IMG/VR virus record: IMGVR_UViG_3300027779_000019 | Coordinates: 1 to 64,000 of that record | Origin: a virus | Length of the DNA stretch: 64,000 nucleotides | Reading direction: 5' to 3' (one strand) | Shown here: positions 20,240-64,000 of the stretch, piece after piece | How positions within the stretch are numbered: position 1 is the stretch's first letter | How the letters are laid out: each line of letters opens with the position of its first letter | The notes under the pieces: generated by a model | Seen by the model: only the letters and a program-made list of their open reading frames with translations | What the model was told of the DNA's origin: nothing | Database searches by the model: none | Made by a program: the position numbers and the translations under genes

Positions 20240-20995
20240 TTCATGCTATTGCCTACCCATCTTCCCCCCTCTTCCCCCCACACAATAAACCAAACACAAA
20301 CAAAGCAATATAAACAAGTACATTGTTTCTTATCTTCTTATTAGAATGATATTATAGGTAGTGTCGAATTTATTTCTATAAATAAGGGTTTTCATTTGAT
20401 TATTTAGAATAACTAATCTATTGAGGTTTTTTGCAATTACTACTATCTACTATACTGTATTTGTGAATGCGAATGATCAAAATATAAAGAAGAAAAATAC
20501 AAACAAAGTAAGCCGCCAAATAAATTCATTTAAATATATCAAATACATTCCAAATATTTTCATTTAAATATATGGCAGCTTTCATTTATTTTCATTTATT
20601 TATATGGGGCTATTTGTGAGCGACTTTGCTCGAAATATAGTAGTGCCAAAAATGAACAAGTCGGCCCGAAATAACCTACAGCTAGATATACAAAGTACAT
20701 ACAACAAAATACAAGCCTGATATATTTTCATTTAAATATATAAGGGGCCAAAAACTAACGATATTTAGCCAAATAACCCGCCTAGAAGCATCTATTTTTT
20801 CAACTGTTAAAACAATGACATTTTAGCAGGAAGATAACTATGTTAAACTGTCAGTTGATTGATAGATTTACATACTTCTTATTTAGAATTATTCTAATTA
20901 CAATCTCAATACAATAACACGATAATATAAGTAGATTCACCGCCGATATATTTTCATTTAAATATTTAAGAGAGTTGAAATTCATTTAATTATTT
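20240..20995. repeat. AT-rich non-coding region with direct TTCATTT(AAATAT) repeats; candidate replication origin
   Basis: Copies at 20391, 20525, 20559, 20581, 20591, 20727, 20953, 20981; no ORF >=60 aa. Confidence 0.55.
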
Positions 20996-22694: not shown

Positions 22695-22835
22695 CGCCAA
22701 ATAATCAAATAACACCAAATAATGAATGATATATTATCAAATAATTATATAGAAGGCAAATGAAAAATATACGAAATAATGCCAAATAAGAATACAAATA
22801 ATATAAATAACTATAATTGCAATAAACGCTATAAA
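22695..22835 (+). repeat. AT-rich tract of (C)AAATAA direct repeats
   Basis: About eight AAATAA copies, two as GCCAAATAA. Confidence 0.55.
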
Positions 22836-22876
22836 TACAACTCATTGATTACCAAGGACTTACATAGGCCGCCCTC

Positions 22877-22953
22877 CTAAGTCGCTGACTACCAAGGACT
22901 TACGGCCGCCGGGTAGCCCGGGGTGCGTAAACCGTTGATGCTCAATAGTTTAC
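22877..22953. repeat. 77-bp tripartite palindromic element, copy 1 (extra 27-bp arm at 22837-22863)
   Basis: ctaagtcgctgactaccaaggacttac / ccgggtagcccgg core / gtaaaccgttgatgctcaatagtttac. Confidence 0.9.
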
Positions 22954-22979
22954 GACAGCGAGAAAGTTTCATTTAGTGC

Positions 22980-23008
22980 TTGACTTTTAGGCAAAAGTAT
23001 GAGATCAT
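22980..23008 (+). promoter_or_regulatory. Sigma70-type promoter, leaderless
   Basis: TTGACT-17-GATCAT with TG; ATG 6 nt downstream. Confidence 0.65.
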
Positions 23009-23014
23009 ATCCTC

Positions 23015-23287
23015 ATGCGTTACATTAACAGCAACTGCACCTATACCGAAAACCACGTTGAGGGAACCTATACGTTCACAGGGCCGTGTCGTGTCACCGG
23101 AGACGACTATAGCGTCACTATACCGGGGCATGAACTTTGGGATCTAAACCAAGGTAAGCCGATCATGTGCTTGAAATCTCTTGATGCGAGCGACAGAGAG
23201 TTCGTCTTGAGTGGAACAAGCCCCAAAGGGTGGGAGAAGCTTTTTGGTGGAGTAGAAGAGATCGCGAAGTCATTAGTCGCGGAGTAG
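23015..23287 (+). CDS. Hypothetical early protein
   Basis: L.A..REF..SG..P..W...F motif; 3' end overlaps the tRNA. Confidence 0.65.
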   Translation: MRYINSNCTYTENHVEGTYTFTGPCRVTGDDYSVTIPGHELWDLNQGKPIMCLKSLDASDREFVLSGTSPKGWEKLFGGVEEIAKSLVAE

Positions 23288-23351
23288 CCAAGCGGTAAGG
23301 CAGGAGATTGCAAATCTCTTATCGTCGGTTCGATTCCGACCTCCGCGTCCA
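23278..23351 (+). tRNA. trnC: tRNA-Cys (GCA)
   Basis: CGCGGAG/CTCCGCG acceptor, D-arm with GG, anticodon loop TT-GCA-AA, T-loop TTCGATT, U discriminator, encoded CCA. Confidence 0.95.
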
Positions 23352-23361
23352 TATTTAGTGC

Positions 23362-23390
23362 TTGACTTTTGAGTAAAGATGTGATACCAT
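23362..23390 (+). promoter_or_regulatory. Sigma70-type promoter
   Basis: TTGACT-17-TACCAT with TG; AGTT-ATG 10 nt downstream. Confidence 0.7.
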
Positions 23391-23400
23391 ATTTGAAGTT

Positions 23401-23955
23401 ATGAGGGAAAGAGAAGAGCCAAAAGGATTTATTAGCTGGGCAGACGCAGGGCCGCGTAAGGTTGTCGACGGATGTGAGGTAGCGCCGGATCGCGTGAAGG
23501 TTTACTTCAATCTTCAAAAAGACTGCCTTTCGGTAATTGATGCGGAGACTGGACTGCTATACTGTCATGCTCATCGGGTTGAGTTGCGTAATGCCAAGTT
23601 TCGGGTACAGCCAGCAGGTCGGGAGCGAGTCATTCGGGAGAAGCGTAAGAACGTCCACGCTTACATTATCGGTGACTGCCATGACATTGGTGACGTTTCC
23701 AAGGAACGTTTTCGCTTGGTTGATAATGAGTTGTTCGAGAAGTACAGCATCTGTGATTGCGGTGACAAACCATACGACTACTGTGAGGAGTGCGTACCGG
23801 AATCAAGTGATGAGTTTCGCGGAGGGTGTTACAATCCTTATAAGTATAAGACTTTCGTAGACGATGTAGAGAAGACGCCGATCCTCAAGTCAGACAGGGT
23901 GATCGTCAGAGACAAGACGGCGATAGGGTCACATTATAATATATTTTATGTTTGA
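23401..23955 (+). CDS. Conserved phage hypothetical protein
   Basis: VYFNL..SV, F.V..AGRERV.REKRKNVHA, YNPYK..TFV. Confidence 0.75.
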   Translation: MREREEPKGFISWADAGPRKVVDGCEVAPDRVKVYFNLQKDCLSVIDAETGLLYCHAHRVELRNAKFRVQPAGRERVIREKRKNVHAYIIGDCHDIGDVSKERFRLVDNELFEKYSICDCGDKPYDYCEECVPESSDEFRGGCYNPYKYKTFVDDVEKTPILKSDRVIVRDKTAIGSHYNIFYV

Positions 23956-24301
23956 ATTAAACCTATGTTATGAATGCAATGAGGTTATAGAGGGTCGATG
24001 GGATTCTCAAATCGGATTAGGCATCGAGACGGGCGAGTTGAAAGACACTCCTTATAAACACCTTATCTACGATAAGCATATCAAATGCTCTCCTAGTAGA
24101 GCGCAGAGGATCGTTCATAAGAAGTTTTCTCCCGTTATAGACGAGAGGTCGCAGTACGATTGGAGGCCGGAAGCAGACAATACTTGGACGGACGAGATGA
24201 GAGAGAAGTACGAAAAGCTTTATACTGAAGCGTGGGTTAGTCTTCAGTTGAAATTTAACCCTACATGGAGAAACAATTATGCAAAACACTGTAAAAACTG
24301 A
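23948..24301 (+). CDS. Hypothetical protein
   Basis: CYEC...HIKC; coupled ORF. Confidence 0.6.
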   Translation: MFELNLCYECNEVIEGRWDSQIGLGIETGELKDTPYKHLIYDKHIKCSPSRAQRIVHKKFSPVIDERSQYDWRPEADNTWTDEMREKYEKLYTEAWVSLQLKFNPTWRNNYAKHCKN

Positions 24302-24590
24302 GATCAAACCTTCCAAAGACTGGAATGGGTTTAATTTTGTGTTCTCAAATGGATGGGGACTCTCCATCCAACAGAGCGAACATCATTACTGTAAGGTCGG
24401 CAAGACGGCAGAGGTCGCTATCTTTGACCCCGAAGGGAATTGGCTCGCTTACGACGAAAAAACCAATTCAGTCGATGTCTTGCTAAATGCAGATACTCAC
24501 GTTAATGGGTGGTTGGATGCTGACGCTATTGCTAAGCTTTTTGCTATACTTTCGCAGAAAGAGGTTGACATTATAGCAGAAGTGTGTTAG
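24279..24590 (+). CDS. Conserved phage hypothetical protein
   Basis: F.F.NGW.LS, AEVA, V.GW motif. Confidence 0.65.
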   Translation: MQNTVKTEIKPSKDWNGFNFVFSNGWGLSIQQSEHHYCKVGKTAEVAIFDPEGNWLAYDEKTNSVDVLLNADTHVNGWLDADAIAKLFAILSQKEVDIIAEVC

Positions 24591-24593
24591 ACT
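24565..24593 (+). promoter_or_regulatory. Sigma70-type promoter with no nearby start codon
   Basis: TTGACA-17-TAGACT with TG. Confidence 0.7.
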
Positions 24594-24596
24594 ACT

Positions 24597-25030
24597 TATC
24601 TTCCGTTAAGGGAGGATGTCATAGTTAAGGTTATTGAAAAGGGAGTCTGGCAGGGCGGACTTAAAAGATTAGGGTAGGAATACAATGCTAATCAACCCCT
24701 GACACTTTCTAAAAGCTCTTTGAGCTTTTTAATTGTTCTTTGATTTTGAGTTGGCGGAGTTAAATACCCCTGTGTGTTTGTTCTGACGGTGCAGACACAC
24801 GCCCGCTTTACTGTTGGTGGTGCGACAGCAACTCATTTAATTTTCTCGCTCGACGGAGTGGGATCGGTGTGACGGAATAATCCCTCCCAAAGGGGTAACG
24901 TAGCGACTGCGACAAGTACGGAGACCAATCGGTTGAGGAATCTCGTGGGTGAGTCCGAAGTAAGTAGATCTGAAACATTTGTTTTCTGGGTACTGAAAAG
25001 GTGCGGGTACACAAATACTCCCGCCACCAT
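24597..25030 (+). ncRNA. Candidate structured ncRNA locus (possibly 2-3 RNAs) with boxB/boxA-like element
   Basis: About 430 nt of elevated GC with many stems; hairpin + TGTTCTTTGA at 24711-24743; ends ...cccgccacca. Confidence 0.5.
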
Positions 25031-25040
25031 TTTATTTAAT

Positions 25041-25349
25041 ATGAAGGTAAGTAATTCGGAGATACTGCTTGAGTCAAAGTTGACCCATGATAAGTTACTA
25101 GAGGCATTCAGAGAAAAGAAAGTGAAAACTAAACATTTAAAGCAAAAGGCTGACAAAAAGAAAGCAGCCAAGAAGACTCGCGCAATTAAGCGAGCAGATG
25201 CAGATAAGCTGGATGCGTTGCGCAAAGACTTTACGCGTAAGATAGAATATAGTTTAGGGCACATCGTCCAAACCAATGCCAAAAACTGTGAAGCGGTATC
25301 CTTCTTAAAGAGTAAGATGAAAAAGATACGTCAGGCAATTTCAGAATAG
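25041..25349 (+). CDS. Basic hypothetical protein
   Basis: Lys-rich ORF from ATG 25041. Confidence 0.55.
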   Translation: MKVSNSEILLESKLTHDKLLEAFREKKVKTKHLKQKADKKKAAKKTRAIKRADADKLDALRKDFTRKIEYSLGHIVQTNAKNCEAVSFLKSKMKKIRQAISE

Positions 25350-25498
25350 TATTATACTTTATGAGGCAAGAAACAAAAGAACAGCGTTGGGCCACAGACT
25401 ACAAAAAGAAAATGGCAAAGATGAGCAAAAGCGTAGACCCAAAAGTGTGGGACTATATTTACGGCTCCAAATAATCCTCCTAGAGCTATTATAGTTCG

Positions 25499-25536
25499 CC
25501 TCCTTTCTGCGCACGAGTAGGAAGGGGGTTTTTTTT
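25499..25536 (+). terminator. Intrinsic terminator
   Basis: cctcctttctgc...gtaggaaggggg followed by T8. Confidence 0.6.
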
Positions 25537-25541
25537 GCGCC

Positions 25542-25619
25542 CTAAAGTACTGACAGTTAAGCACTTACGGGGCGGCGGCTGCGGGCGGCGGCGTAAGTCC
25601 TTGGTACTCAGTGACTTAC
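25542..25619. repeat. 77-bp tripartite palindromic element, copy 2
   Basis: ctaaagtactgacagttaagcacttac / GC core / gtaagtccttggtactcagtgacttac. Confidence 0.85.
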
Positions 25620-25646
25620 GTACGTAAAGTTTTATTCTTTTTTTGC

Positions 25647-25675
25647 TTGACTTTTTAGGTAAAGTGTGGCATAAT
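25647..25675 (+). promoter_or_regulatory. Sigma70-type promoter, leaderless
   Basis: TTGACT-17-CATAAT with TG; ATG 6 nt downstream. Confidence 0.7.
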
Positions 25676-25681
25676 ACTCTC

Positions 25682-25873
25682 ATGGAAATTGAGAACGTTA
25701 AGGAGTGTGTCGAGAGCGCAATGTCGGACTTCTTTTTTGGTGAAGGCTATATTGACGGCGGCGTTGCTTACGCTATTTGCACTAGGGAAGATATGAACGG
25801 CAGGAGCCAGATGACAGAACTTCAGGAAACTATAACTGAAAGAATTATTAACTTTAACAAAGAAAAGGATTGA
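25682..25873 (+). CDS. Hypothetical early protein
   Basis: Leaderless ATG after promoter. Confidence 0.55.
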   Translation: MEIENVKECVESAMSDFFFGEGYIDGGVAYAICTREDMNGRSQMTELQETITERIINFNKEKD

Positions 25874-25898
25874 CATTTAAGCAAAAGTATGATAGACT
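25870..25898 (+). promoter_or_regulatory. Sigma70-type promoter
   Basis: TTGACA-17-TAGACT with TG; leader begins GAGTGAGAGA. Confidence 0.7.
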
Positions 25899-25949
25899 AT
25901 ATTCTTTGAGTGAGAGAACTATATAACAAAAAACTAAACTAAAAAACAT

Positions 25950-26852
25950 ATGGCAAGAACAACTAGACCCACATCAGACAACTACTCCTTCGGCGTACAG
26001 CACACGGCCCTCAAAGCCTCTGACGGTACACCTTCGGGATGGTTTGGAATACAGCGCACCGACAACAACAAAGTTATAGGTGTTAGCTCGGAAAAGTACG
26101 GTATCGTCAAAAACGATGACGTTATAGGAGCCGTCAAGGAGGCGTTAGGAGAGCATCAATCGACTCTTGGAGAATACGAGGAGGAAATCAGCTGCGTGCG
26201 TGATGGTTCGCGTATGTACGGAGGTTTTACCTTTAAGGACTACAAACGTGACCACAAGGACGGTGGTCAGTACGAAAAAGGCGATTACATGGGAATGAAG
26301 TTGACGGTCAATAACTCCTATGACCGCACTTGTCGGGTGTCTCTATCGGTTGGAATGCTTCGCTTGGTTTGCACCAACGGCATGACCTCGCTAGAGCAGG
26401 AACAGTCTATGACTCGCAAGCATTCTCTGCAAGTGGACATTTCTTTCATTCGTGACGCAATCTCTGGCTGCATTGAAAAGTTCGAGTCATCGGTTGACCA
26501 TCTTGGTAGACTGTCAAAGGTTTCCTTGACACAAGACCAAGGCACGAACATATTGAAGAACCTTACCGATAAGAAGATTATATCGGAAGTCGTTCGCGCT
26601 GGTGTCGCTAGTATTTGGGCGAATCCATCCTACGATCAGGACAAACCTCGAAACTTGTATACCTTGTATAACGCATCGACGCAGTACCTCACGCATGATC
26701 CCAACCCTTCTGCTCGGCTTGAGTATTCCAGCAGGGTGGACAAGGTGTTGCTGGGCAAGTTCAGCGAAATGAGTTCGATCCCCAGCAAGTTCAACCTGTT
26801 ATCGGCCAAGCCGAAAGAAAAGAAGCAGGAACAAATTGTCGTTGCTGTCTAA
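25950..26852 (+). CDS. DUF932/DUF945 family phage/plasmid protein
   Basis: RTD...IG.VS.KY.IV.N, NSYDR, RLVCTNGM, RKH, LYTLYNA.T..LTH. Confidence 0.85.
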   Translation: MARTTRPTSDNYSFGVQHTALKASDGTPSGWFGIQRTDNNKVIGVSSEKYGIVKNDDVIGAVKEALGEHQSTLGEYEEEISCVRDGSRMYGGFTFKDYKRDHKDGGQYEKGDYMGMKLTVNNSYDRTCRVSLSVGMLRLVCTNGMTSLEQEQSMTRKHSLQVDISFIRDAISGCIEKFESSVDHLGRLSKVSLTQDQGTNILKNLTDKKIISEVVRAGVASIWANPSYDQDKPRNLYTLYNASTQYLTHDPNPSARLEYSSRVDKVLLGKFSEMSSIPSKFNLLSAKPKEKKQEQIVVAV

Positions 26853-26935
26853 CCCAGCAATGCCTCACGCCCCGTCGAAGGCTTAATCTTTCTCCTTCGG
26901 CGGGGTCACTTTAATATATAAAAAATAAAATATAA

Positions 26936-27187
26936 ATGAGCAAATATATAAATTCCCCAAAACGAAAATATTCCGTAACACACTTTGACATGAAGGCAAG
27001 GGGCAGCTTCGCCCTTGGAGATAAGCAGCTCCAAGGCCCCATCGAAATAGAGAGGGTACAAATAGCATGGCAACCCGACGAGCAAACGAGCCACGCGCTA
27101 TTATTTGAAAATCCCAATCATATAAATTTGATTCCGCTGATATTAGAAGAGGCGGGGTACGAGCTATCAGAAGATTCCGTGTTCTAA
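26936..27187 (+). CDS. Hypothetical protein
   Basis: 83 aa; stop codon lies inside repeat copy 3. Confidence 0.55.
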   Translation: MSKYINSPKRKYSVTHFDMKARGSFALGDKQLQGPIEIERVQIAWQPDEQTSHALLFENPNHINLIPLILEEAGYELSEDSVF

Positions 27188-27259
27188 GTCGTTGACTATC
27201 AGGGACTTACGCGCGCCGGGCTGCCCGCGGCCGTAAACCCTTGGGCATCAATGACTTAA
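27184..27259. repeat. 77-bp tripartite palindromic element, copy 3
   Basis: ctaagtcgttgactatcagggacttac / cgggctgcccg / gtaaacccttgggcatcaatgacttaa. Confidence 0.9.
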
Positions 27260-27327
27260 GGCCAAGAGAAAATTACAAAAAAACTATAATAGGATAATCA
27301 GAGGGCCTAAAAAGTTATTCTTTTTGC

Positions 27328-27356
27328 TTGACTATTAGCCGAAGCTGTGCTATACT
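27328..27356 (+). promoter_or_regulatory. Sigma70-type promoter
   Basis: TTGACT-17-TATACT with TG. Confidence 0.75.
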
Positions 27357-27363
27357 TTCGGGA

Positions 27364-28008
27364 GTGATTGCAAAAAAGAAAATGACAATAAAACAGGCTC
27401 AAGGGTTGGTCGGTTCGTTATCGACACCATCGAAAATGCCCGGCTTTGGATACAGCACACCGGCAGAAGATTGCGTTACAGGCTCAAAACTGGTTCAGGT
27501 AGTGAATTCTATTTGTTCGTTTTGCTATGCTAGAAAAGGCCGTTACGTTTTCCCAAACGTAATTGCAGCAATGAAAAAACGACTTGCCGCATTGCGTCAA
27601 TTGAATTGGGTGGACGTGATGACCTTCCTAATTGAAAAAAGGGAAAAGAGTGGCTTTTTTCGCTGGCACGATAGCGGAGACGTTCAAGGCGTTTGGCATC
27701 TCGAAAAGATCGCAGAAGTTGCAAGGCGATTGCCCAACATTAAATTTTGGCTGCCGACGAGAGAGTATGGCTTTGTGCGCGAATGGATGAGCTTGGGCAT
27801 CAAGCCGGACAATCTGACTATCCGCTTGTCGGCTTACATGATGGACGGCGCACCACCAGCCACGTTAGCCAAAAAGCTCGGCTTGACGACCAGCGGGGTT
27901 GTTCGTGACGGATTCAGTTGCCCAGCATCTGACCAAGGCAATGAATGCAAAGAGTGCCGCGCTTGCTGGGACGAGACGGTGGAAAATATAAACTATAAGA
28001 AGCACTAA
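27364..28008 (+). CDS. Gp88-family phage protein (Cys-rich, radical-SAM-like)
   Basis: LS.PSKMP, C..GSKL...C..CYA.KG, FRWHDSGD, FWLPTRE, NL.IRLS, C..CRACW. Confidence 0.8.
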   Translation: MIAKKKMTIKQAQGLVGSLSTPSKMPGFGYSTPAEDCVTGSKLVQVVNSICSFCYARKGRYVFPNVIAAMKKRLAALRQLNWVDVMTFLIEKREKSGFFRWHDSGDVQGVWHLEKIAEVARRLPNIKFWLPTREYGFVREWMSLGIKPDNLTIRLSAYMMDGAPPATLAKKLGLTTSGVVRDGFSCPASDQGNECKECRACWDETVENINYKKH

Positions 28009-28012
28009 AAGC

Positions 28013-28040
28013 TTGACTTTATTGGGAATTGTGATATACT
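28013..28040 (+). promoter_or_regulatory. Sigma70-type promoter
   Basis: TTGACT-16-TATACT with TG. Confidence 0.7.
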
Positions 28041-28111
28041 CCTTTGTGAATGGAGATGCCATTACTACTGATACTAGCGGTCATTGTAACCTACCTACAA
28101 CAAAAAACAGA

Positions 28112-28345
28112 ATGAGAAAACTAATGCAAAAACTAAAGCGGTTAATGAGGCCGCGCTTCACCTTGGTTTACCGTAAAAGAGACGGTGCGAGTGGAATCTA
28201 CGAGATTTCCAGACCAAGAACAGACAACACCTTTGGCAACATCGGAGAGGGAGAGGATGAGGTTGGCTTTCGCGCCTATTGTTACAATCGCGAAAACTGG
28301 CGTTCTTTCCGTCACGATGGAGTCATTTCTATGGTGAAAAATTAG
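28112..28345 (+). CDS. Stand-alone WYL-like domain protein
   Basis: F.Y....G.....I.P...AYCYNRENWRSFRHDGV. Confidence 0.6.
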   Translation: MRKLMQKLKRLMRPRFTLVYRKRDGASGIYEISRPRTDNTFGNIGEGEDEVGFRAYCYNRENWRSFRHDGVISMVKN

Positions 28346-28372
28346 CCTCCGGTTTACCGGAGTACGTCAAGG

Positions 28373-28402
28373 AAAAGCCCACCGGAAACGGTGGGCTTAT
28401 TT
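28373..28402. terminator. Bidirectional terminator at the convergence point
   Basis: aagcccaccg-gaaa-cggtgggctt. Confidence 0.8.
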
Positions 28403-28427
28403 CTTATAATAGATAAGGTCTTATTTT

Positions 28428-28841
28428 TTAGTTATCCGGCCGGTTGGCTTCCATGTCGTGAGCAGAGGCAACACGGTAGCCAATCTCGCTTCTTGGGGGA
28501 AGCAGAGAGAACGAAGCGTTATAGTCAATTGACTCCCAAGCCTCTTGGGCAAGTTTCGCAACGTGTGGGTATACGCCGCCTCTAATGCCTTTGAAGGCGT
28601 CACAGCTTTCATTTAGCACACGCATCAACGTGCGGGAAAAGACGGCTTGTTTCAATCGCTTGGAAGTAGACCAAAACCAAAAGAAGTTTTCGCCAATCCA
28701 ATTTGGTTCATCGCAAGCGGCCGCGCCGTGATTATGCCAACCAAAAAACTCATACTTTAGAGCTTGATTGTCGCCGTTGCCCATTATACCAACGGCCCAA
28801 CTAGAGCCGTTACGCTGCACAATAATATTACTGTTTTGCAT
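28428..28841 (-). CDS. Hypothetical protein
   Basis: 137-aa ORF. Confidence 0.6.
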   Translation of the reverse strand: MQNSNIIVQRNGSSWAVGIMGNGDNQALKYEFFGWHNHGAAACDEPNWIGENFFWFWSTSKRLKQAVFSRTLMRVLNESCDAFKGIRGGVYPHVAKLAQEAWESIDYNASFSLLPPRSEIGYRVASAHDMEANRPDN

Positions 28842-28953
28842 TTTTCTTTTTCCTTGAATAAGAGCCTTTGCCCTTCTCGGTTTTATGTGTTCGTGTTCCC
28901 GTATTAAAAGGAACCACCTTTCTAGGTTTAGAAATTTTCTTCTTCTCTCTCAT
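28828..28953 (-). CDS. ArfA-like (alternative ribosome rescue factor motif) peptide, 41 aa, not in ORF track
   Basis: MREKKKISKPRKVVPFNTGTRTHKTEKGKGSYSRKKKNAKQ; leaderless after promoter 28988-28960. Confidence 0.6.
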   Translation of the reverse strand: MREKKKISKPRKVVPFNTGTRTHKTEKGKGSYSRKKKNAKQ

Positions 28954-28959
28954 GCGTTT

Positions 28960-28988
28960 ATAGTCTCATAATTTCGGGCAAATGTCAA
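28960..28988 (-). promoter_or_regulatory. Sigma70-type promoter, leaderless
   Basis: TTGACA-17-GACTAT with TG; ATG 6 nt downstream. Confidence 0.65.
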
Positions 28989-29097
28989 GGTAAATATACA
29001 ACTATTTCAAATATGTAAACACCTAAAAACGAAATAGGTTAAGAGCAAATAACTCAAATATATAAAAAAACTATAAAAGTATATTTTTTCCACAGTT

Positions 29098-29174
29098 GTA
29101 AGTCATTGACTATCAACGACTTACGTCCGGCGGGCTGCCCCCAGCCCGTAACCCATTAGTACTCAAAGGGTTAC
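29098..29174. repeat. 77-bp tripartite palindromic element, copy 4
   Basis: gtaagtcattgactatcaacgacttac / gggctgccc / gtaacccattagtactcaaagggttac. Confidence 0.9.
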
Positions 29175-29178
29175 ACCT

Positions 29179-29364
29179 TTAAAGTCCGCACTTATAGCAG
29201 GGCAAATACCCCGCAAATGGATCTACCCCATTCGCTTCGCCGCCCCAGCCTCCGCATTGTGGGCAATTCTCTTGCGTGTCCCGTTCTTTAAGTTCTTCCT
29301 CTTTGAACTCAGGATCTTTGCCCCTATAGGGCTTGGTGTGTCTGTGCTCTTGCTTCATGTCCAT
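29179..29364 (-). CDS. Small zinc-finger protein (DnaJ-type CxxCxGxG)
   Basis: CPQCGGWGG...PCYKC. Confidence 0.5.
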   Translation of the reverse strand: MDMKQEHRHTKPYRGKDPEFKEEELKERDTQENCPQCGGWGGEANGVDPFAGYLPCYKCGL

Positions 29365-29564
29365 TGCTTGCGGTCGGTTTCCTCTTCGTAGCCTGCGTGG
29401 TAGGCGTCCAGATCAGCCTTCGTCATGTCTTCCACCTTGACGCGGGGGGCATTACCGGTACCGTTCGGGTAGTAGTGGGCATCGCTGCCCCTGCCATAGT
29501 AGCGGTCAGCAGATCCCCGATCATAGGGGCTGCCGTGTTTCGTATCGTATTTTTCTGTTCGCAT
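29355..29564 (-). CDS. Conserved phage hypothetical protein
   Basis: HGSPYDRGSAD.YYGR...HYY...Y.AGY. Confidence 0.7.
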   Translation of the reverse strand: MRTEKYDTKHGSPYDRGSADRYYGRGSDAHYYPNGTGNAPRVKVEDMTKADLDAYHAGYEEETDRKQWT

Positions 29565-29587
29565 AATTATATAAAAGGGGTTACCGG

Positions 29588-29881
29588 TCACAGCATCTCA
29601 CAGCCTCCGCCGTAATCCTCATCCGTGCCCCAGCCCGCACTAGCGAGCGCATCCCCGTCCGCTTCCGCGTCCGAGTTGAAACCGTCCCAATCCTCGCCTG
29701 CGGCGTCATCGATAGACCACACCACCTCGCGAGAATTGTCGGTATGATGCTCGATAACGTCCTCGCCCACCTGATCGGCCAACCTAATGGCCGCGTTCAA
29801 TGCTGTGTGATCGGCATCACCCACGTTCTGCGTGAAACTCTGCACTACACCCTCTCCATCAACAACTGAGTATTTCCTCAT
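29588..29881 (-). CDS. Acidic hypothetical protein
   Basis: Ends DGDALASAGWGTDEDYG; promoter TTGACA-16-TATACT at 29919-29892. Confidence 0.65.
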   Translation of the reverse strand: MRKYSVVDGEGVVQSFTQNVGDADHTALNAAIRLADQVGEDVIEHHTDNSREVVWSIDDAAGEDWDGFNSDAEADGDALASAGWGTDEDYGGGCEML

Positions 29882-30017
29882 AACAGAAAACAGTATACCA
29901 CAAAATGGAGAAATGTCAATCAATAATGTCACTTTTTTAAAAAAGATATTTTAACTATTTATCGTACTTGGCATGAAAACCCTCCTAAGGTATCGCTTTT
30001 TAGGGTAGTTGGGGTGC

Positions 30018-30094
30018 GTAAGTTACTGATTACCAAAGACTTACATTTTCGCGGGCAGCCCGCGGCCGTAAACTACTGGTAATCAAAGAGTTAG
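30018..30094. repeat. 77-bp tripartite palindromic element, copy 5
   Basis: gtaagttactgattaccaaagacttac / cgcgggcagcccgcg / gtaaactactggtaatcaaagagttag. Confidence 0.9.
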
Positions 30095-30307
30095 CCCCCC
30101 CAAGGACAAGTGAGTGAAACCTTGGGAGGGCTTGAGGAAGGTAGCCGGAGAGATGACGGCTACCAAAGTCAGCGGCAATTATAGATTTTCTTTAGTTTTC
30201 TATTTCTTTTTAATCGCGCTTGAGTTATAAGTTCGTCGATCCTTTCGTCAACTAAACTAAAGGCAAGGATAGATTTTCCGCTTCGATTTTTTAGGTTGAT
30301 CTTCATT

Positions 30308-30499
30308 TTATTGTTTTACTATTTTTATAGCTTTCGCGCACCAGCCATCATAATCGCTTTCGGTTGCGGTGACTTTGCCTTCCCAAGTTGCGCCTCGAAC
30401 CTCAGCAAGCCATGACGGAGTTGGTAGAATCGCTGTATCGCCTACGCTTGCCTGTTCGTCGGTTTCGTATGTATAGTTATTGTTTATTTTTATTTTCAT
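30308..30499 (-). CDS. Hypothetical protein
   Basis: YTYE....VGD..ILP. Confidence 0.55.
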   Translation of the reverse strand: MKIKINNNYTYETDEQASVGDTAILPTPSWLAEVRGATWEGKVTATESDYDGWCAKAIKIVKQ

Positions 30500-30768
30500 G
30501 TAGAGTAGATTTCGCGGGGTGTCTCAAGGATTGCTTTATCAAACCAGCTTTGCGGCTGCACTTCGCATTTGACACCTTCTAGCCACCTGTTTAAATGTCG
30601 TGATGTTGTTTTGCTAAACTTTTCTTCTGTCTTATAATACTTCACGCCAACCTTGGCGGCTACGGGCGTACCGTAAGAGAAGAAAACAGTAGTACGTTTT
30701 GTCTCATCGACAAGCCTTTTGTTGAAGTGGACTTCCGTCTCGTTAGTGCTTATGTTTTTTATATACAT
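30496..30768 (-). CDS. Conserved phage hypothetical protein
   Basis: FSYGTPVAA, S.TTSRH.N.W. Confidence 0.7.
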   Translation of the reverse strand: MYIKNISTNETEVHFNKRLVDETKRTTVFFSYGTPVAAKVGVKYYKTEEKFSKTTSRHLNRWLEGVKCEVQPQSWFDKAILETPREIYST

Positions 30769-30770
30769 GA

Positions 30771-31079
30771 TTAGAAATCTGGATCGCTTGTATGCTTGTA
30801 GTTTTTAAAAAATTCCGCTCTGGCTTGTTTCCTTAATTCTTTAAAGTAGCCATCAATCGACAAGGCAACCTCGTCCCGAGCATCACCGCTCCAAGGCATG
30901 TTTTCAATGTCACCAACAACAATGTCAACAACCTCCTTTATTGGCTGACCCCATGGGTTATCGGTATCTTTCACGAGCAGCTCCCTAACGCTCAGGTGTT
31001 CGCCCATTGGCTTGCTGCGGAAGTCGTTGCTAGCTATTTCCCAAACCTTATCTATTGCTTTTTTTATGTTAGAGTCCAT
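30771..31079 (-). CDS. Hypothetical protein
   Basis: TAATG-coupled to the hydrolase gene. Confidence 0.55.
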   Translation of the reverse strand: MDSNIKKAIDKVWEIASNDFRSKPMGEHLSVRELLVKDTDNPWGQPIKEVVDIVVGDIENMPWSGDARDEVALSIDGYFKELRKQARAEFFKNYKHTSDPDF

Positions 31080-31534
31080 TATAGTTTGTAAAAAACGTGT
31101 TGCCCGATAACCTTGACGGGCTTTTGACCTTTTGCCCAGTAAGGTTTCTTTTTCATCCAAGTCGCGTGGTAATGATTAGCGAAGCCAACAAAGTCACGAC
31201 TTAAAAGTTTGATGTTTTTAGCCAATGCCAGCGCGTACTTCGCTTGCGGAACCTTCAACAAGTGTTCAAGATTCTTTAACTTTTTACCGTTCCAACAACT
31301 AAATTGGTAGGGCTTGAGACAGATTTCGGTTGCTGTTCTCTTTCTCTCGAATGCGCGTTGAGCAATGACAGCAGCCACCGCGTACATTCCTCCCTGTCCT
31401 TCGCCACGGGCTTCTGCCAATATAGTGATAGCAATGATTTTGGTTTCTCTGGTGAGTTTTGCATTTGTGTGAGTGTGCGCGTAAACAGTAAGAGCAAAGG
31501 CGGCGACTAGTATAGTTGTTATTATTTTTTTCAT
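31079..31534 (-). CDS. SleB/CwlJ-family cell wall hydrolase with signal peptide
   Basis: TILAEARGEG..GM.AVA.VI..R, QFSCWN, A.HYHA, PYWA, IG.HVFY. Confidence 0.9.
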   Translation of the reverse strand: MKKIITTILVAAFALTVYAHTHTNAKLTRETKIIAITILAEARGEGQGGMYAVAAVIAQRAFERKRTATEICLKPYQFSCWNGKKLKNLEHLLKVPQAKYALALAKNIKLLSRDFVGFANHYHATWMKKKPYWAKGQKPVKVIGQHVFYKL

Positions 31535-31535
31535 T

Positions 31536-31778
31536 TTAAGCTAAAAGGGTGACAGTTGCGTTAGAGTTAAGAGCGTGGACAGTCGGTTCTTTTGGTTCGT
31601 CATCGAATCCGCAATGATTGCCAAGCGCGTGTTTTATTATAGCCCAAAGACTTGGGACTGGCCCGAACTGCTCAAGTGTTTTGTCGCCTCGCTTAACGGT
31701 AAGAGTCCAAGCGACTTTGCCGCTTTCTTCGCATTCGAAGATGTCTACTGTTTTTGTCGGATGGTTTATATCTCTCAT
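31536..31778 (-). CDS. Hypothetical early protein
   Basis: Start ATGAGAGA 10 nt after promoter TTGACT-17-TACGAT (31817). Confidence 0.55.
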   Translation of the reverse strand: MRDINHPTKTVDIFECEESGKVAWTLTVKRGDKTLEQFGPVPSLWAIIKHALGNHCGFDDEPKEPTVHALNSNATVTLLA

Positions 31779-31813
31779 AACTTGTAATATCGTATCAGAT
31801 TTTAGGGCAAAAG

Positions 31814-32110
31814 TCAAGCACTATCTTTGCAAATTTCACATTCGCATTCTTGTGCTTTTATAGCTTCTTCGTTCCAGTCATCGCAAAATGTGGTAAGTTC
31901 CTTAACTTCCTTTTTCGTTTTCAGTCCACGCTTGAATTGTTCCCAAGTGGGGCGTTGCGCTTCGGGAATTGCTTCCCAGCCTTTCATCAATTCGGCACGA
32001 CGAGCCTGTTCCTCCGCCAACCACGGCAGAACGCTATTTGCTGACATATCGCCACCCTTTTCCGCTCTCCTGCGGATTCCTTCTGTTATTGCTCTTGAAT
32101 TATCTCTCAT
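31814..32110 (-). CDS. Hypothetical early protein
   Basis: Start ATGAGAGA after TGnTATACT; C-terminal CECEIC. Confidence 0.55.
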   Translation of the reverse strand: MRDNSRAITEGIRRRAEKGGDMSANSVLPWLAEEQARRAELMKGWEAIPEAQRPTWEQFKRGLKTKKEVKELTTFCDDWNEEAIKAQECECEICKDSA

Positions 32111-32165
32111 AACTGGGAATAGTATAACACAATCTCGCAAAATAGCAAGCTTTAATGTCACTTTT

Positions 32166-32393
32166 TTAAGCCTCGATTCCCGCTTTGTCTTCGATCCATT
32201 CGAGATCTTCGCTATTCTCGATTTCGGTTAGCCTGTTCTGGACGTCGGCGAGTTTCTCTTCCCAATGCTCTATGCGGATTTGAATCGCTTCCTTCCCAAT
32301 GAGGTTAGTCTGCGCTAATATTTGCAACGCTCCACGCACTTCGGCGATAGCAATGCCTTCGTTCCTCAAACTCTTCTGTGTCGTATCTCTCAT
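32166..32393 (-). CDS. Hypothetical coiled-coil early protein
   Basis: Start ATGAGAGA 10 nt after promoter TTGACT-16-TATGCT (32431). Confidence 0.55.
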   Translation of the reverse strand: MRDTTQKSLRNEGIAIAEVRGALQILAQTNLIGKEAIQIRIEHWEEKLADVQNRLTEIENSEDLEWIEDKAGIEA

Positions 32394-32543
32394 AACTGCA
32401 AAGAGCATAGCACAATCAGCCAAAAAGTCAAGAGAAAAGAATCACTTTTTTAACAAATATGAATAAAAAAAAGAACAAATATTAGGACAAATATGCTTGA
32501 CAAGTTCATCAAAAACCGAAAAAAATGACTTTTTAAAACTACC

Positions 32544-32620
32544 GTAAGTTATTGACTATCAAGGGTTTACGGCGGGCGGGCAGCCCGAGGCCCGTAAGTC
32601 CTTGGCGGGCAGAGGGTTAG
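32544..32620. repeat. 77-bp tripartite palindromic element, copy 6
   Basis: gtaagttattgactatcaagggtttac / cgggcagcccg / gtaagtccttggcgggcagagggttag. Confidence 0.9.
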
Positions 32621-32675
32621 CACCATCATCGGCGCGCTGTGTCTCAAGCGAAACGATGATGGTTTACGCTAGAGA

Positions 32676-32954
32676 CTATATTGAGTCACCAGCGGGCGTT
32701 CGCCTATTCGCGATCCTGTTGAGTTCCGCATTGCATTTACTCATTCGTTTCCGTAGGTTCTGCACCTCCAGTAACGTCTTGCGCTCAAGCATTTCTTCAG
32801 TCTTCATTTCGCTGAAGTACTCAATCATGAAGCGGAGCGTTTTGGTTTTGGTAGTGAACAGCTCATTGCTGAGCTTATCTAGGCTTTGCTTAACTTCGGG
32901 GGATACCCGAAGGTTGATGGCGACGCTTTGGTTGTTTTTCGTTATGTAGTTCAT
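32676..32954 (-). CDS. Ribbon-helix-helix DNA-binding protein with coiled-coil tail
   Basis: VAINLRVSPEVKQSLDKLS....TKTKTLRFMIEYF. Confidence 0.65.
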   Translation of the reverse strand: MNYITKNNQSVAINLRVSPEVKQSLDKLSNELFTTKTKTLRFMIEYFSEMKTEEMLERKTLLEVQNLRKRMSKCNAELNRIANRRTPAGDSI

Positions 32955-33084
32955 TATAAGTTTAAAGTTAGAGCCGCAGCCGTTAATGCTGCACTGCCCG
33001 TTATGCATAGCCACGCATTCAGTTCATTCAATCCGAGATCATTAATTAACCATTTCATTTTATTTATCATAATTCTTTTTATAT

Positions 33085-33309
33085 CTAGTTGGGCCATACT
33101 TGCTCGATGTCCCAGCCATCACGGTCGTTACGCTTACGGCACTCGATGCGAACATCTAATACAGTTGTTTTCCTTATAACACCAGCGAAACCGATTGCGT
33201 CATTGAACGCCCTATGGTCAGGCTCACCCTTCACCATAGGGAAGGCTTTGAAGTTGATGGTGCCGTCTGTCTTCCAGAACACCGTAAACGTTTTGTTTGT
33301 ATCTCTCAT
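33085..33309 (-). CDS. Hypothetical early protein
   Basis: Starts ATGAGAGA like its neighbours. Confidence 0.55.
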   Translation of the reverse strand: MRDTNKTFTVFWKTDGTINFKAFPMVKGEPDHRAFNDAIGFAGVIRKTTVLDVRIECRKRNDRDGWDIEQVWPN

Positions 33310-33321
33310 TATATTAAATCC

Positions 33322-33522
33322 TTATTCGCACTCGTGGCACTGGTAGTTTTCCAAGCCGTGATCCCATTGGCCAACTTCTTCTAGGCTGATCACTACTTCC
33401 GCACCGCATCCGCAGCACACAACCTCATGTCCATCCACGGTGTTGTTGTCGTCGTTCCGATCCATCTCGTTGTTCATTTCGTTATTCATCTTATTCATTT
33501 CGTTGCTCTTTCTCTCACTCAC
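33322..33522 (-). CDS. Small zinc-binding protein
   Basis: CCGC...CHEC; promoter TTGACT-17-TACGAT at 33558. Confidence 0.55.
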   Translation of the reverse strand: MSERKSNEMNKMNNEMNNEMDRNDDNNTVDGHEVVCCGCGAEVVISLEEVGQWDHGLENYQCHECE

Positions 33523-33561
33523 TTGTTATATCGTATCACATTTAAGGTTGAAAGTCAACAC

Positions 33562-33750
33562 TTATTTTGGATTATTTCCACAATATCCAGCCAGTTGATT
33601 GGCTTGGTGCTTGGGGTCATTGTTCACCGTGTAGGTGTTACCGTTCAAGGTGAAGGTGTCACGCTTGGCCTCACGGCGGCGACGTTGCTCCAAGTGTCTG
33701 CGGATCTCTGATATTGTCATTTGATTGTTCATTGTCTTTCTCTCACTCAC
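33562..33750 (-). CDS. Hypothetical early protein
   Basis: GTG 7 nt after promoter TTGACT-17-TAGACT at 33786. Confidence 0.5.
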   Translation of the reverse strand: MSERKTMNNQMTISEIRRHLEQRRRREAKRDTFTLNGNTYTVNNDPKHQANQLAGYCGNNPK

Positions 33751-34077
33751 TGGGTATAGTCTAACACGATAGGCCCGAAAAGTCAAGCGGTTTCTTTGTT
33801 TTATTTCATTTTTATTTCGTGTGATTCTTTACCTAGTTGGCACGATTATTGCCTAGTGATGATTGTATAACTGTCGTAAGTCATTGACTATTAGGTACTT
33901 ACGCCTCGGGGCCAGCCCGCCGACGTAAGTCCTTGGTGCTCAGTGGGTTACGCGAATGGCATGCTTCATGTGTGGCAGGTATCGTGCCAAGTCATTATAA
34001 TACGACACGAAAAGAAAGTTATTTTTTTTACATTTAGGGGTTGACTTTTGAGGTAAGATGTGATATCATATTCCTAG
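33750..34077. promoter_or_regulatory. Mirror-symmetric divergent promoter hub centred at 33913/33914
   Basis: Paired elements at equal distance from the axis: GTGAGTGAG (33750/34077), TTGACT (33786/34041), TTCGTGT (33816/34011), TTGGCACGAT (33837/33990), 27-bp arms (33876/33951). Confidence 0.8.
33876..33951. repeat. 77-bp tripartite palindromic element, copy 7
   Basis: gtaagtcattgactattaggtacttac / gggccagccc / gtaagtccttggtgctcagtgggttac. Confidence 0.9.
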
Positions 34078-34309: not shown

Positions 34310-34582
34310 GTGAGTGAGAGAAACAGTAAGATGAAAAACAAAATAAAATTCCTAAACGTAGTGTTCAACGTCAAGCGCAACGCCGCTTACCAAGGCAACC
34401 ACGAGCTTGCCAGAACCGATAGAATCCACACGACCTTCCCGCTCGGCACAACCGAGGAGGAAATGATCAGCGAGTTTCACTCGGAGCTAGTCAACATCGA
34501 CATTAACGGTAAGACTTGGCTAAAGGGTGAAATGATTCAGGTCACCAGCATTGATAATTGTTTCGAAGATTCAACTAACTAA
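34310..34582 (+). CDS. Hypothetical early protein
   Basis: 90-aa ORF after promoter. Confidence 0.55.
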   Translation: MSERNSKMKNKIKFLNVVFNVKRNAAYQGNHELARTDRIHTTFPLGTTEEEMISEFHSELVNIDINGKTWLKGEMIQVTSIDNCFEDSTN

Positions 34583-35069: not shown

Positions 35070-35543
35070 TTAGCGCCGCCCATCTCTTAACCGATTGATA
35101 ATCAGGGAAGTAGAGCGCCCTTTCTTAAACGGTAGGATGCAAATTTCCGCCCTGACCATCTCTAAAACGCTCCTTTCGCATATATTGAGAGACTCTACGG
35201 AGTAATCTCCGCCTTTTGCATAAATGTGAGGCCTACTAGAAGCTATAAAGTCTCTGCCACCCTTTTCGGGGAAGACAGTTACTACGTCGACGGCTCTTAA
35301 GGCGTCGAGAACGGCCGCTCTATCGTTTTCTGAGTTAATTGGGCGGTCAGACCCCTTAAGTTGGCGTACGGAGGCGTCACTATCGCATCCTACAAGTAGC
35401 AGGTCGCCCAAAGCAGCAGCTTTATTAAGATAATCTACATGACCAGCATGCAACAGGTCGAAACAACCATTCGTTACAACTAACTTCGTGCTTGGGTCAA
35501 GATCGTCTCGCCAACTACGTAAATCATCAATAGAAACAAACAT
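35070..35543 (-). CDS. RfaE/HldE domain II-like nucleotidyltransferase (ADP-heptose synthase-like)
   Basis: VVTNGCFDLLHAGHVDYL, DASVRQLKG..RPIN...RA.VL..L..VD.V, KGGDY, STS.II. Confidence 0.9.
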   Translation of the reverse strand: MFVSIDDLRSWRDDLDPSTKLVVTNGCFDLLHAGHVDYLNKAAALGDLLLVGCDSDASVRQLKGSDRPINSENDRAAVLDALRAVDVVTVFPEKGGRDFIASSRPHIYAKGGDYSVESLNICERSVLEMVRAEICILPFKKGRSTSLIINRLRDGRR

Positions 35544-63400: not shown

Positions 63401-64000
63401 CAACTTCACTGTCGATACTCGTCAAAGCGATGGGACTTTTGTTAGCACGGATTATCAAATCGTCAAGGATGCAAGTGGAGCCAATTACCAAAGATGGTTT
63501 ACTCAGGGTGCAGAGCGAATGCGGATTATATCTGACGGCAATGTCGGTATAGGAACAGCAACCCCAAGTGCTCAACTCCAAACAACCGGCGACGTTATAG
63601 TCGGAGGCAACCTTACTGTTTCAGGTACGACGTTTACGGTCGATACATCGAACGTTCTTGTCGAAGATCCGGTTCTCTTACTTGCCAAGAATCAAACTGG
63701 TGGAGCGGCTTTGGATGCAGGATTTATCGTCGAGCGTGGCAGTGATACAAACGTTGGGTTTATTTGGGATGAGTCTGCTGATCAATTTGCAGTAATCAAT
63801 ACAACTGAAATAGCCGACGACAATGATATAACTATAGCAAGTTATGCGGCCTTTAAGGCTGGATCTCTGACGACTCCCGGAAATATAACAACTACGGGAA
63901 CAGGAACAATCACATCAGCTTCAAGTCTTACAGCGGGTGGAACCTTATATGTTGATGAAAATATTCGACATACAGCAGACACCAATAATTATATAAACTT
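57406..64000 (+). CDS. Giant modular fibre/adhesin protein, frameshifted by a 32-bp duplication, 3'-truncated by the window
   Basis: 57406-58659 joins the frame starting 58692, which I read as open to the window end; GNVGIG..P repeats, coiled-coil repeats, duplicated modules. Confidence 0.8.
58628..58691 (+). repeat. Perfect 32-bp tandem duplication
   Basis: cacaattcgaaggataccacggcggaaattgg x2. Confidence 0.95.

Follow-up and report, generated by a model that had tools for sequence, protein, structure and literature searches.

Two-arm elements in the early-gene region

The window, a stretch of 64,000 nucleotides, comes from the 77.7-kb record of an uncultured marine phage, and its early-gene region carries seven two-arm elements and one lone arm between positions 22837 and 33951. 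Each element of about 77 bp consists of a palindromic arm of 27 bp, a GC-rich core of 22-24 bp and a second arm. All copies and the lone arm were found where the first-pass annotation had placed them, and they are confined to this region, since a position-weight scan of the full record returned the 15 arms of these elements and a single weak match at 35087. The arm pattern GTAAGTC-N13-GACTTAC, with up to three mismatches, occurs 12 times against 2.5 expected, a number reached in 0 of 100 shuffles. The palindromic core of CGGGCWGCCCG type that had been described recurs in most copies, copy 2 being an exception, and core complementarity corresponds to a weak dyad (0.56, compared with 0.40 in shuffles).

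Every copy lies at the ends of transcription units, and, as had been claimed, a strong sigma70-type promoter follows 26-112 bp downstream of it, on the plus or the minus strand according to the direction of transcription; these early promoters form a separate repeat family (D7). Element 1 (22877-22953, with arms 22877-22903 and 22927-22953 around the GC core) stands 26 bp before the -35 box at 22980 of the plus-strand early promoter 22980-23008, and the lone arm (22837-22863, weight-matrix score 32.7 bits) lies 13 bp upstream of it, which makes a three-arm array. Element 2 (25542-25619), whose left arm is weak and right arm strong, is preceded by a strong intrinsic terminator at 25498-25529 and followed after 27 bp by the -35 box at 25647 of the plus-strand promoter 25647-25675. 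A separate canonical terminator was found upstream of copies 1 and 2 only. The first arm of element 3 (27184-27259) contains the stop codon of the ORF 26936-27187, and the -35 box at 27328 of the plus-strand promoter 27328-27356 follows at 68 bp. The next three promoters are on the minus strand. Element 4 (29098-29174), 4 bp past the minus-strand ORF 29179-29364, is situated 109 bp upstream of the promoter 28988-28960, which has a TTGACA -35 box at 28988-28983; element 5 (30018-30094) lies 98 bp upstream of the -35 box at 29919 (promoter 29919-29892) and element 6 (32544-32620) 112 bp upstream of the one at 32431 (promoter 32431-32404). Element 7 (33876-33951) is flanked by divergent sigma70 promoters, 33786-33758 on the minus strand (-35 at 33786) and 34041-34069 on the plus strand (-35 at 34041), at 89 bp to each.

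Most elements serve sigma70 promoters in this way. Promoters of both sigma70 and sigma54 type also point into the elements from fixed distances. A sigma70-like promoter on the plus strand at 32497-32526 (TTGACA, 18 bp, AAAAAT) is directed into element 6, its -35 box ending 41 bp before the element. Element 7 receives the canonical sigma54-type promoter motif TGGCACGATTATTGC (33838-33852, plus strand, no mismatches) and, from the opposite side, the sigma54-type motif TGGCACGATACCTGC (33975-33989, minus strand), both at 23 bp from its edge. The two face each other across copy 7, and the one at 33838-33852 is among just two strict sigma54 matches in the 77.7-kb record. Of the sigma54 motifs near elements, 21 of 28 are directed into the element from 8-104 bp away, mainly from 12-23 bp. 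Genes for enhancer-binding (sigma54 activator) proteins were not found in the phages.

The arm family and its helical register

The arm is shared by many phages. A 20-base arm pattern matches 85 viral stretches, which are uncultured phage contigs. From these come some 820 arms, and the elements with two arms number 341 once duplicates are removed. Its consensus is GTAA-N4-TTGA-NTA-TCAA-N4-TTAC, with columns T2 A3 A4, T10 G11 A12, T14 A15 T16 C17 A18 A19 and T24 T25 A26 conserved at 76-100% and positions 5-8, 13 and 20-23 variable. None of the isolate phages matches the element, no Rfam covariance model matched an element, whether the gathering threshold or E<=1 was applied, and the motif was not found in any published description; within the reach of these searches the idea of an undescribed cis system holds. 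Elements are kept at orthologous positions in the relative L103/L105. In arm-free relatives, with TerL 62-70% identical, a comparable position holds a GGGCCCGGGCCC hairpin, an A-tract and a promoter, and these are plain cassettes resembling those of the promoter-early stem-loop (PeSL) kind.

Single arms also adjoin promoters in cellular genomes, including complex promoter regions of Akkermansia. One Akkermansia genome has 20 arm sites, compared with 0 for the reversed control; here two palindromic sites some 150 bp from each other enclose the arm, ahead of exopolysaccharide/PEP-CTERM genes. Few bacterial genomes are rich in arms, and those few belong to particular lineages (3 of 121 sampled Verrucomicrobiota and essentially none of 61 Planctomycetota).

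Distances from the element end to the -35 box are clustered in the family at 15-17, 25-29, 36-39 and 46-49 bp, and so on to 105-112 bp, with a Rayleigh R of 0.48 at 10.5 bp (p<0.0005). The window's eight element-to--35 distances give R=0.83 (p=0.0015) with the same phase as the family. The -35 boxes of inward-pointing promoters are quantised too, at 1-5, 10-12, 21, 29-33 and 39-42 bp. With respect to the early promoter next to it, the element keeps to one face of the helix. In the window the start-to-start spacing of the arms is 49-51 bp, but the proposed five helical turns between them are not general: spacings in the family fall into two classes, of 50 bp and of 41-42 bp, which indicates that the arms need not sit on the same helical face.

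Stem-loop, duplex site or mobile cassette

Folding of the element as three hairpins or as one long hairpin had been suggested; both are predicted, but not uniformly, with copies 1 and 4 giving three hairpins and the others one long hairpin. Single-strand folding is strong across copies (z-scores from -1.3 to -5.5), which would suit a stem-loop cluster of PeSL type acting at the RNA level, either as a bidirectional terminator or attenuator of read-through or as a transcript-stabilising 5'-terminal hairpin at abutting promoters. The location of copies at transcription-unit ends, most of them with no separate canonical terminator, is in accordance with such a role, as are the retention of the GC hairpin alone in arm-free relatives, the abutting promoters predicted to initiate a few bases ahead of the first arm, and the T-run that follows 11 of 29 elements with an abutting promoter. 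Published PeSL stem-loops are likewise GC-rich, have no fixed position relative to the promoter and are efficient terminators (Arbiol et al. 2010, PMC2839356).

The pairing within the arms speaks against an RNA. Watson-Crick pairing matches the expectation from column frequencies in 11 of 12 arm pairs, with a slight excess of covariation at pair 5-23 alone, and a formal count gives 82.6% pairing compared with 80.5% in shuffles, leaving 17% of stem cells unpaired. The two half-sites are conserved independently, with covariation nearly absent. On the sense strand G.U and A.C mismatches are equally frequent (83/80 and 68/68), and elements transcribed from an abutting promoter show 12-13 G.U against 23-24 A.C, so the transcribed strand has no G.U excess. 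Copies do not share one fold; within elements the arms are direct in 62 and inverted in 38 of 100 cases, and because of these mixed orientations the long arm-to-arm hairpin is not conserved. A plain hairpin would drift, whereas the arm sequence is kept across hundreds of divergent phages; copy 2, downstream of its strong terminator, would rarely be transcribed; and a 10.5-bp phasing to the -35 box has no meaning for RNA. Since in many relatives the element lies inside the transcribed 5' leader, an RNA role keeps some likelihood, and we regard it as rather unlikely. A protein site in duplex DNA is better supported than an RNA or a cruciform, given the missing covariation, the missing G.U bias, the copy-to-copy differences in fold and the phasing to promoters.

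The same data bear on non-B DNA, a reading in which cruciforms or single-strand hairpins would be extruded from the arms and serve as a supercoil buffer, as hairpin promoters of the phage N4 type or as priming signals. An arm is able to fold into a stem of 12 bp closed by a loop of 3 nt, which is also the geometry of the N4 early promoter hairpins. The elements lie between strong divergent or tandem promoters, where negative supercoils accumulate, and the GC core would probably limit branch migration. Such a structure predicts compensatory changes, which are not seen, and part of the stem cells (17%) are unpaired; strong sigma70 promoters already serve the early genes, and the promoter phasing points to B-form geometry, which makes this explanation highly improbable.

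That the elements exchange cassettes, as a site-specific or homology hot spot or as a repeat of REPIN/MITE type, would agree with several observations. Relatives reshuffle their early genes, in contigs of other seawater samples the sequence departs precisely where an element begins or ends (with loose ends at 27180-27225 and at 29099), and copy 3 has alternative cores between its arms in such contigs. PeSL cassettes of T4-type phages are documented to mediate cassette shuffling (Arbiol et al. 2010, PMC2839356; Comeau et al. 2014, PMC4122927). Gene order indeed differs among relatives, but homology stops at gene or promoter boundaries as often as at the element. Blocks end in the stretch that separates promoter from element, or at ordinary limits of genes, and strain-level contig joints fall mostly in repeated promoter and leader sequences, which are much better conserved than the elements. 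Copies within the genome are about 70% alike, a poor substrate for homologous recombination and unlike the outcome of recent transposition. The 3-bp centre of the arm does not fit the core of a tyrosine-recombinase site, comparison of arm-positive with arm-negative phages shows no co-occurring recombinase, and the elements of L103/L105 have stayed in place. The shuffling proposed in the first-pass annotation is therefore weakly supported, and recombination or mobility is an improbable function. A mobile repeat of the REP/REPIN or MITE type is not supported, given the diverged copies, their restriction to one 11-kb region and the lack of a transposase in the profile. Among the readings first offered, it is the protein-architecture site that is favoured, while a DNA-entry signal found no support.

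A putative docking module and its known counterparts

We consider the element a putative duplex-DNA docking module for a sequence-specific protein, phased to its promoter, with a probability of roughly 0.55; binding, the binder and the direction of regulation we infer from the repeats, their conservation without covariation, the phasing and the promoter geometry. The two pseudo-palindromic arm sites would each bind a sequence-specific DNA-binding protein, and between them lies a GC-rich dyad which would correspond to the GC stem-loop in the cassettes of arm-free relatives. The bound protein may bend or organise promoter-flanking DNA and so tune or insulate the adjacent early transcription units. 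With the element upstream of a promoter, RNA polymerase would be activated or held, and where a promoter fires into the element, polymerase might be blocked or gated.

The binder is most likely host-encoded. HU/IHF genes were not found in this record or in 11 element-bearing phage records, and profiling of arm-positive against arm-negative phages gave no credible phage-encoded candidate. The ORF 32676-32954, previously read as a ribbon-helix-helix protein, is not recognised as such by Pfam. The best guess, made from sequence, is a bending protein of IHF/HU type, since conservation in the arm coincides position by position with the IHF consensus WATCAANNNNTTR: in the family's T14 A15 T16 C17 A18 A19 N4 T24 T25 A26 the variable columns fall exactly at the IHF N4. 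The window has 13 exact IHF-consensus matches compared with 4.6 expected, and such matches occur in 4 of its 15 arms, the three noted previously (29111, 30081 and 32557) and one more, on the minus strand, at 22838. The arms lack the A/T-rich 5' tract and the asymmetry usual for IHF sites; in place of the tract the 5' half of the arm is GTAAGTCGTTGA, a mirror of the core. Judged by the published IHF-DNA co-crystal structure, the inverted half-sites TTGA-N3-TCAA would probably be 2 bp too close for a symmetric HU/IHF dimer. HU-family genes are universal in the sampled Verrucomicrobiota regardless of arm count. A more tentative and clearly less probable view is that the arm is the site of an undescribed and widely dispersed architectural protein of marine and gut bacteria, which uncultured phages, in their hundreds, would have recruited as a two-site promoter gate or insulator. 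The symmetric module around a GC clamp would then work from either promoter side and, placed between face-to-face sigma54 or sigma70 promoters, could act as a bidirectional gate or insulator of early cassettes.

The motif may rank among the most abundant conserved non-coding motifs of uncultured aquatic phages, and the window's phage itself is present in seawater data of 16 studies. If a host protein docks on the element, this would show how these phages arrange dozens of early genes, each under its own promoter, and set their timing; the motif would be a tag by which uncultured phages could be assigned to hosts possessing the binder, and the binder would be a new global architectural regulator, apparently also at exopolysaccharide promoters of Akkermansia. 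The face-to-face sigma54 motifs of copy 7 point to possible enhancer-dependent transcription, which is rare in phage.

Several known systems resemble the element in part. In the RIB/RIP (BIME-1) elements of E. coli, which stand at the 3' ends of transcription units, an IHF site is paired with REP palindromes. Here too an extragenic element at transcription-unit ends joins a bending-protein consensus with a GC-rich palindrome. The order is inverted, however, as two consensus sites flank the GC core instead of one lying between two REPs, and compared with IHF sites and RIB/RIP the sites are doubled into pseudo-palindromes, have no A-tract and are phage-borne. The bending protein p4 of phage phi29 binds between the promoters A2c, A2b and A3 and represses or activates through contact with RNA polymerase. 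Its sites, too, are paired inverted repeats that keep a helical register with early promoters, whereas sequence and spacing are unrelated, our elements are found upstream of, downstream of and between promoters, and no p4-like or other phage-encoded binder was found for them. The architecture upstream of sigma54 promoters (enhancer, bend site and -24/-12 promoter) is resembled by a relative (L034) that has a canonical sigma54 promoter with arms centred some 97 and 147 bp upstream, and by the Akkermansia arm between a distal palindrome and a promoter-proximal motif; the elements differ in standing mostly at sigma70 promoters, with most sigma54 motifs pointing inward.

PeSLs share several traits with the elements: repeated intergenic cassettes before small ORFans in a hyperplastic early region, a strong sigma70-type promoter with an A/T-rich upstream tract and a GC-rich stem-loop, a stem-loop either up- or downstream of the promoter, and the marking of gene-cassette boundaries. 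The strong promoter expected of a PeSL accompanies every copy in the window, at a variable distance, and arm-free relatives of the window's phage carry exactly such cassettes. The differences are that the GC dyad is here flanked by two sequence-conserved 27-bp palindromes absent from PeSLs, that the promoter lies outside the 77-bp unit, 15-112 bp away and helically phased, and that the copies of a genome have drifted too far apart to recombine well with each other. Overall, we regard the elements as a new form of phage promoter/boundary cassette.

Tripartite repeats of the early region and their occurrence in other phages

With a completeness of about 49%, the IMG/VR contig studied here represents a large, myovirus-like phage with genes including rIIA, clamp loader, terminase and portal, and DNA of this phage is present in seawater metagenomes from 16 studies. 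The region 22837-33951 contains seven copies of a tripartite repeat, each built of a 27-bp arm, a GC-rich core of 22-24 bp and a second arm, and one extra arm, so the elements described in the first-pass annotation are confirmed. The two arms of a copy start 49-51 bp apart, and the arm pattern was counted 12 times against 2.5 expected. It had also been stated that no copies lie beyond the early-gene island, which holds for the whole 77.7-kb record: a weight-matrix scan gave only 15 arms, all inside 11 kb. The open reading frame 32676-32954, previously taken for an RHH protein, is without a Pfam match, and that assignment is not upheld.

Several other features of this record were observed. A tRNA-Cys(GCA) gene (23278-23351, + strand) is situated within the early region, with another early promoter directly 3' of it. 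In the stretch 24846-25034 (+), which has no ORF, the manA RNA motif RF01745 is matched over its full length but below threshold (38.1 bits, the gathering threshold being 55.2; E=5e-7). This stretch is 95-96% identical in the relative L063, has very high depth in seawater runs and probably encodes a manA-like structured RNA carried by the phage. A motif of 27-29 nt, ATGAACGAAAAAACGCCAAATAA, is present in six copies, five near 1-2.4 kb (1040-2352) and the sixth just upstream of element 1 (22763-22789), and could act as promoter or operator for a different temporal class. Shortly before the early region, at 20497-20970, a 46-nt A/T-rich motif ending in ...TTTTCATTTAAATATAT forms three direct repeats about 200 bp apart, with a weaker fourth copy at 2690-2735 (65% identity). 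Large internal repeats at 57676-63998, with units of 114-300 nt and 68-76% identity, overlap an ORF of more than 1780 aa (58656-63998) that runs past the window end and probably encodes a repetitive fibre or surface protein.

The element belongs to a family found in uncultured phages. A 20-base arm pattern was found in 85 stretches of IMG/VR contigs, where well below one would be expected as estimated from the approximate collection size, and almost all of these have the layout of arm, GC core and arm. Iterated scanning brought the number of arms to about 820 and that of unique two-arm elements to 341, at the densest 16 per 9 kb. Their arm spacing falls into a class of 50 bp and one of 41-42 bp, and their spacers are 85% GC compared with a background of 42%. 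The first-pass annotation had counted a match to a known Rfam family against its reading; no Rfam family was found on the elements at gathering or E-value threshold. A blastn search of one element against 50,697 records of isolate phages gave a single 24-base chance match, and a literature search for the arm sequence found the motif in no paper, the matches being primers and other unrelated sequences.

Conservation of the arms and geometry of the promoters

The arm consensus is GTAAGTCGTTGA-NTA-TCAACGACTTAC, with columns 2-4, 10-12, 14-19 and 24-26 conserved at 76-100% and columns 5-8, 13 and 20-23 variable. The main rival explanation, which we consider unlikely, is that the element acts at the RNA level as a terminator or leader hairpin. 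The locus L056 has the order gene, promoter, element, 59 bp, gene, so the element there is a 5' leader. The spacer contains a centred, modest dyad (0.56, compared with 0.40 in shuffles). Under selection for a hairpin, covariation of the variable arm columns would be expected. The Watson-Crick fraction equals the prediction from column frequencies for 11 of the 12 arm pairs, the sole enriched pair being 5-23 (0.64 vs 0.51), and a formal pairing count over 150 arms gave 82.6% paired positions compared with 80.5% in shuffles. Sense-strand G.U and A.C mismatches are equally frequent in 100 promoter-oriented elements (83/80 and 68/68), and A.C is even the commoner of the two where a promoter abutting the element transcribes it. 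Moreover, 62% of the elements have their two arms in direct orientation, so that a long arm-to-arm hairpin is not conserved, and single-strand folds differ among the window's seven copies. A non-B-DNA structure is less likely than the RNA-level rival. It follows from these data that the palindrome is kept by conserving both half-sites, and such a conservation pattern is the signature of a putative protein site on duplex DNA.

The position of the promoters is also informative. Within 120 bp of an element outward-pointing sigma70 promoters are enriched, with 120 full promoters against 18 inward ones. Among the 100 elements with a single outward sigma70 promoter, the gaps between element end and -35 box form classes with a step of 10.5 bp, the shortest being 15-17 bp and the longest 105-112 bp (Rayleigh R=0.48, p<0.0005). 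The window's eight gaps (26, 27, 68, 109, 98, 112, 89 and 89 bp) have the same phase as those of the family (R=0.83, p=0.0015). Helical phasing that persists over as many as ten turns is not easily explained other than by the geometry of the DNA itself. Inward TTGACA boxes are found at quantised distances of 1-5, 10-12, 21, 29-33 and 39-42 bp, while complete extended -10 promoters stop 7-10 bp short of the first arm and often flank both sides of the element. Our preferred reading, with a probability of roughly 0.55, is that the element would serve as a protein-docking module, helically phased with the early promoters, which elaborates a PeSL-like GC stem-loop (PeSL being the promoter-early stem-loop cassettes of T4-type phages).

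Canonical sigma54-type motifs accompany some elements and, like the sigma70 boxes, also point into them. The viral loci contain 60 strict sites, and 28 of them are located at most 150 bp from an element; of these 28, 21 point inward, mostly with the -12 GC 12-23 bp from the element edge, and seven point outward, at 41-67 bp. The unit at the locus L034 consists of promoter, element, 60 bp, promoter and gene; measured from the second promoter, its arms lie about 97 and 147 bp upstream. The 77.7-kb record has only two strict motifs, 33838-33852 (+) and 33975-33989 (-), which are placed face-to-face and symmetrically about copy 7, each 23 bp from its edge of the element and co-directional with the sigma70 promoter beyond it. 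It is uncommon for a phage to use enhancer-dependent promoters. A search for a phage-encoded sigma54 activator or enhancer-binding protein found none, the matches being generic AAA+ proteins such as the clamp loader. Several arm-positive genomes lack sigma54 motifs, which were therefore rejected as a regular companion of the element.

Candidate binding proteins and single arms in cellular genomes

The conserved right half of the arm, T-ATCAA-N4-TTA, corresponds to the IHF consensus, and its variable columns coincide exactly with N4; the left half mirrors it without the W-A positions. The arm could possibly be a simple IHF site, but it has no A-tract and the exact consensus is present in only four of the 15 window arms. 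In addition, judging by the published IHF-DNA structure, the inverted arm halves are presumably too close together by 2 bp for a symmetric HU/IHF dimer. HU/IHF genes were found neither here nor in 11 phage records that carry elements, and as a discriminating host factor HU/IHF was discarded, being universal across the 121 Verrucomicrobiota profiled. Comparison of gene content between arm-positive (n=5) and arm-negative (n=3) phages gave no credible phage-encoded DNA-binding candidate; it yielded only sugar-nucleotide enzymes, a DUF and a 46-aa basic peptide. This extremely basic peptide (P0001, 13631-13771, + strand) is matched by tblastn in three further phages with arms and in none of three relatives without them, but its low complexity makes such matches unreliable and it was not retained. 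The comparison leans towards a host binder, only weakly because the genomes are incomplete. The putative binder is probably host-encoded and possibly of IHF/HU type.

Assignment of a host through metagenome bins was not successful. In the bin 'Cellvibrionales' the contig with ten two-arm elements (at 28-38 kb) is itself phage-like and 210 kb long: six sampled 20-kb stretches (L161-L166) look like phage DNA, with ribonucleotide reductase, a terminase 41% identical to that of this phage and a GC content of 32-38%, and therefore the bin assignment is no host evidence. The 'Enterobacterales' and 'Rhodobacteraceae' MAG contigs are both relatives of this phage.

Single arms are present in a few cellular genomes. 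One Akkermansia genome has 20 arm sites, compared with 0 for a reversed-pattern control, a Fibrobacter genome has eight single-arm sites, and in a Verrucomicrobiae chromosome a repeated IS promoter carries one arm. Genomes rich in arms are rare (3 of 121 Verrucomicrobiota, 0 of 61 Planctomycetota), and Planctomycetota were dismissed as an arm-rich group, with single matches in 7 of 61 genomes compared with 4 for the control. Genes beside bacterial single arms are mutually unrelated, and an autoregulated transcription factor was not observed among them. The Akkermansia arm is situated 8-20 bp upstream of the motif TGCATT-N3-AATGCTGTA, a palindromic copy of which lies about 100 bp upstream of the arm, an arrangement resembling a putative architectural site between two regulator sites. 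This motif has about 45 sites in the Akkermansia MAG (e.g. L125:1501-1560, L133:1501-1560 and L142:1501-1560), mostly paired at a distance of about 150 bp, the 27-bp arm lying between the two. Such arrays are found upstream of exopolysaccharide, acyltransferase, RgpF, PEP-CTERM and F420-hydrogenase-like genes, and the arrangement looks like an undescribed regulon architecture.

Cassette boundaries and arm-free relatives

A close relative (L103/L105) has retained copies 3, 5, 6 and 7, the last together with its sigma54 pair, at orthologous positions. More distant relatives have the same early genes in different orders. Contigs of four seawater runs contain many alternative joints, the majority within repeated promoter/leader sequences (for example 32112-32132, 33321, 33692-33767 and 34323-34349), and a few loose contig ends exactly at element edges (27180-27225 and 29099). 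The earlier proposal of cassette shuffling at the element is weakly supported: the elements mark cassette boundaries but are at most candidate exchange sites. A recombination site is a less likely reading than the protein-docking module or the RNA-level rival.

Three relatives with terminases 62-70% identical to that of this phage (G201-G203) have no arms. The early region of G202 (L250:1-10500) is homologous and contains sixteen near-identical strong promoters (GCTTGACAAAC...TGTGGTATATTATA), most of which, about nine visibly, have a GGGCCCGGGCCC hairpin and an A-tract upstream. This combination of hairpin, A-tract and promoter is a plain PeSL-type cassette (PMC2839356). With such cassettes in an arm-free relative, it looks as if the arms had been added to a PeSL-like stem-loop.
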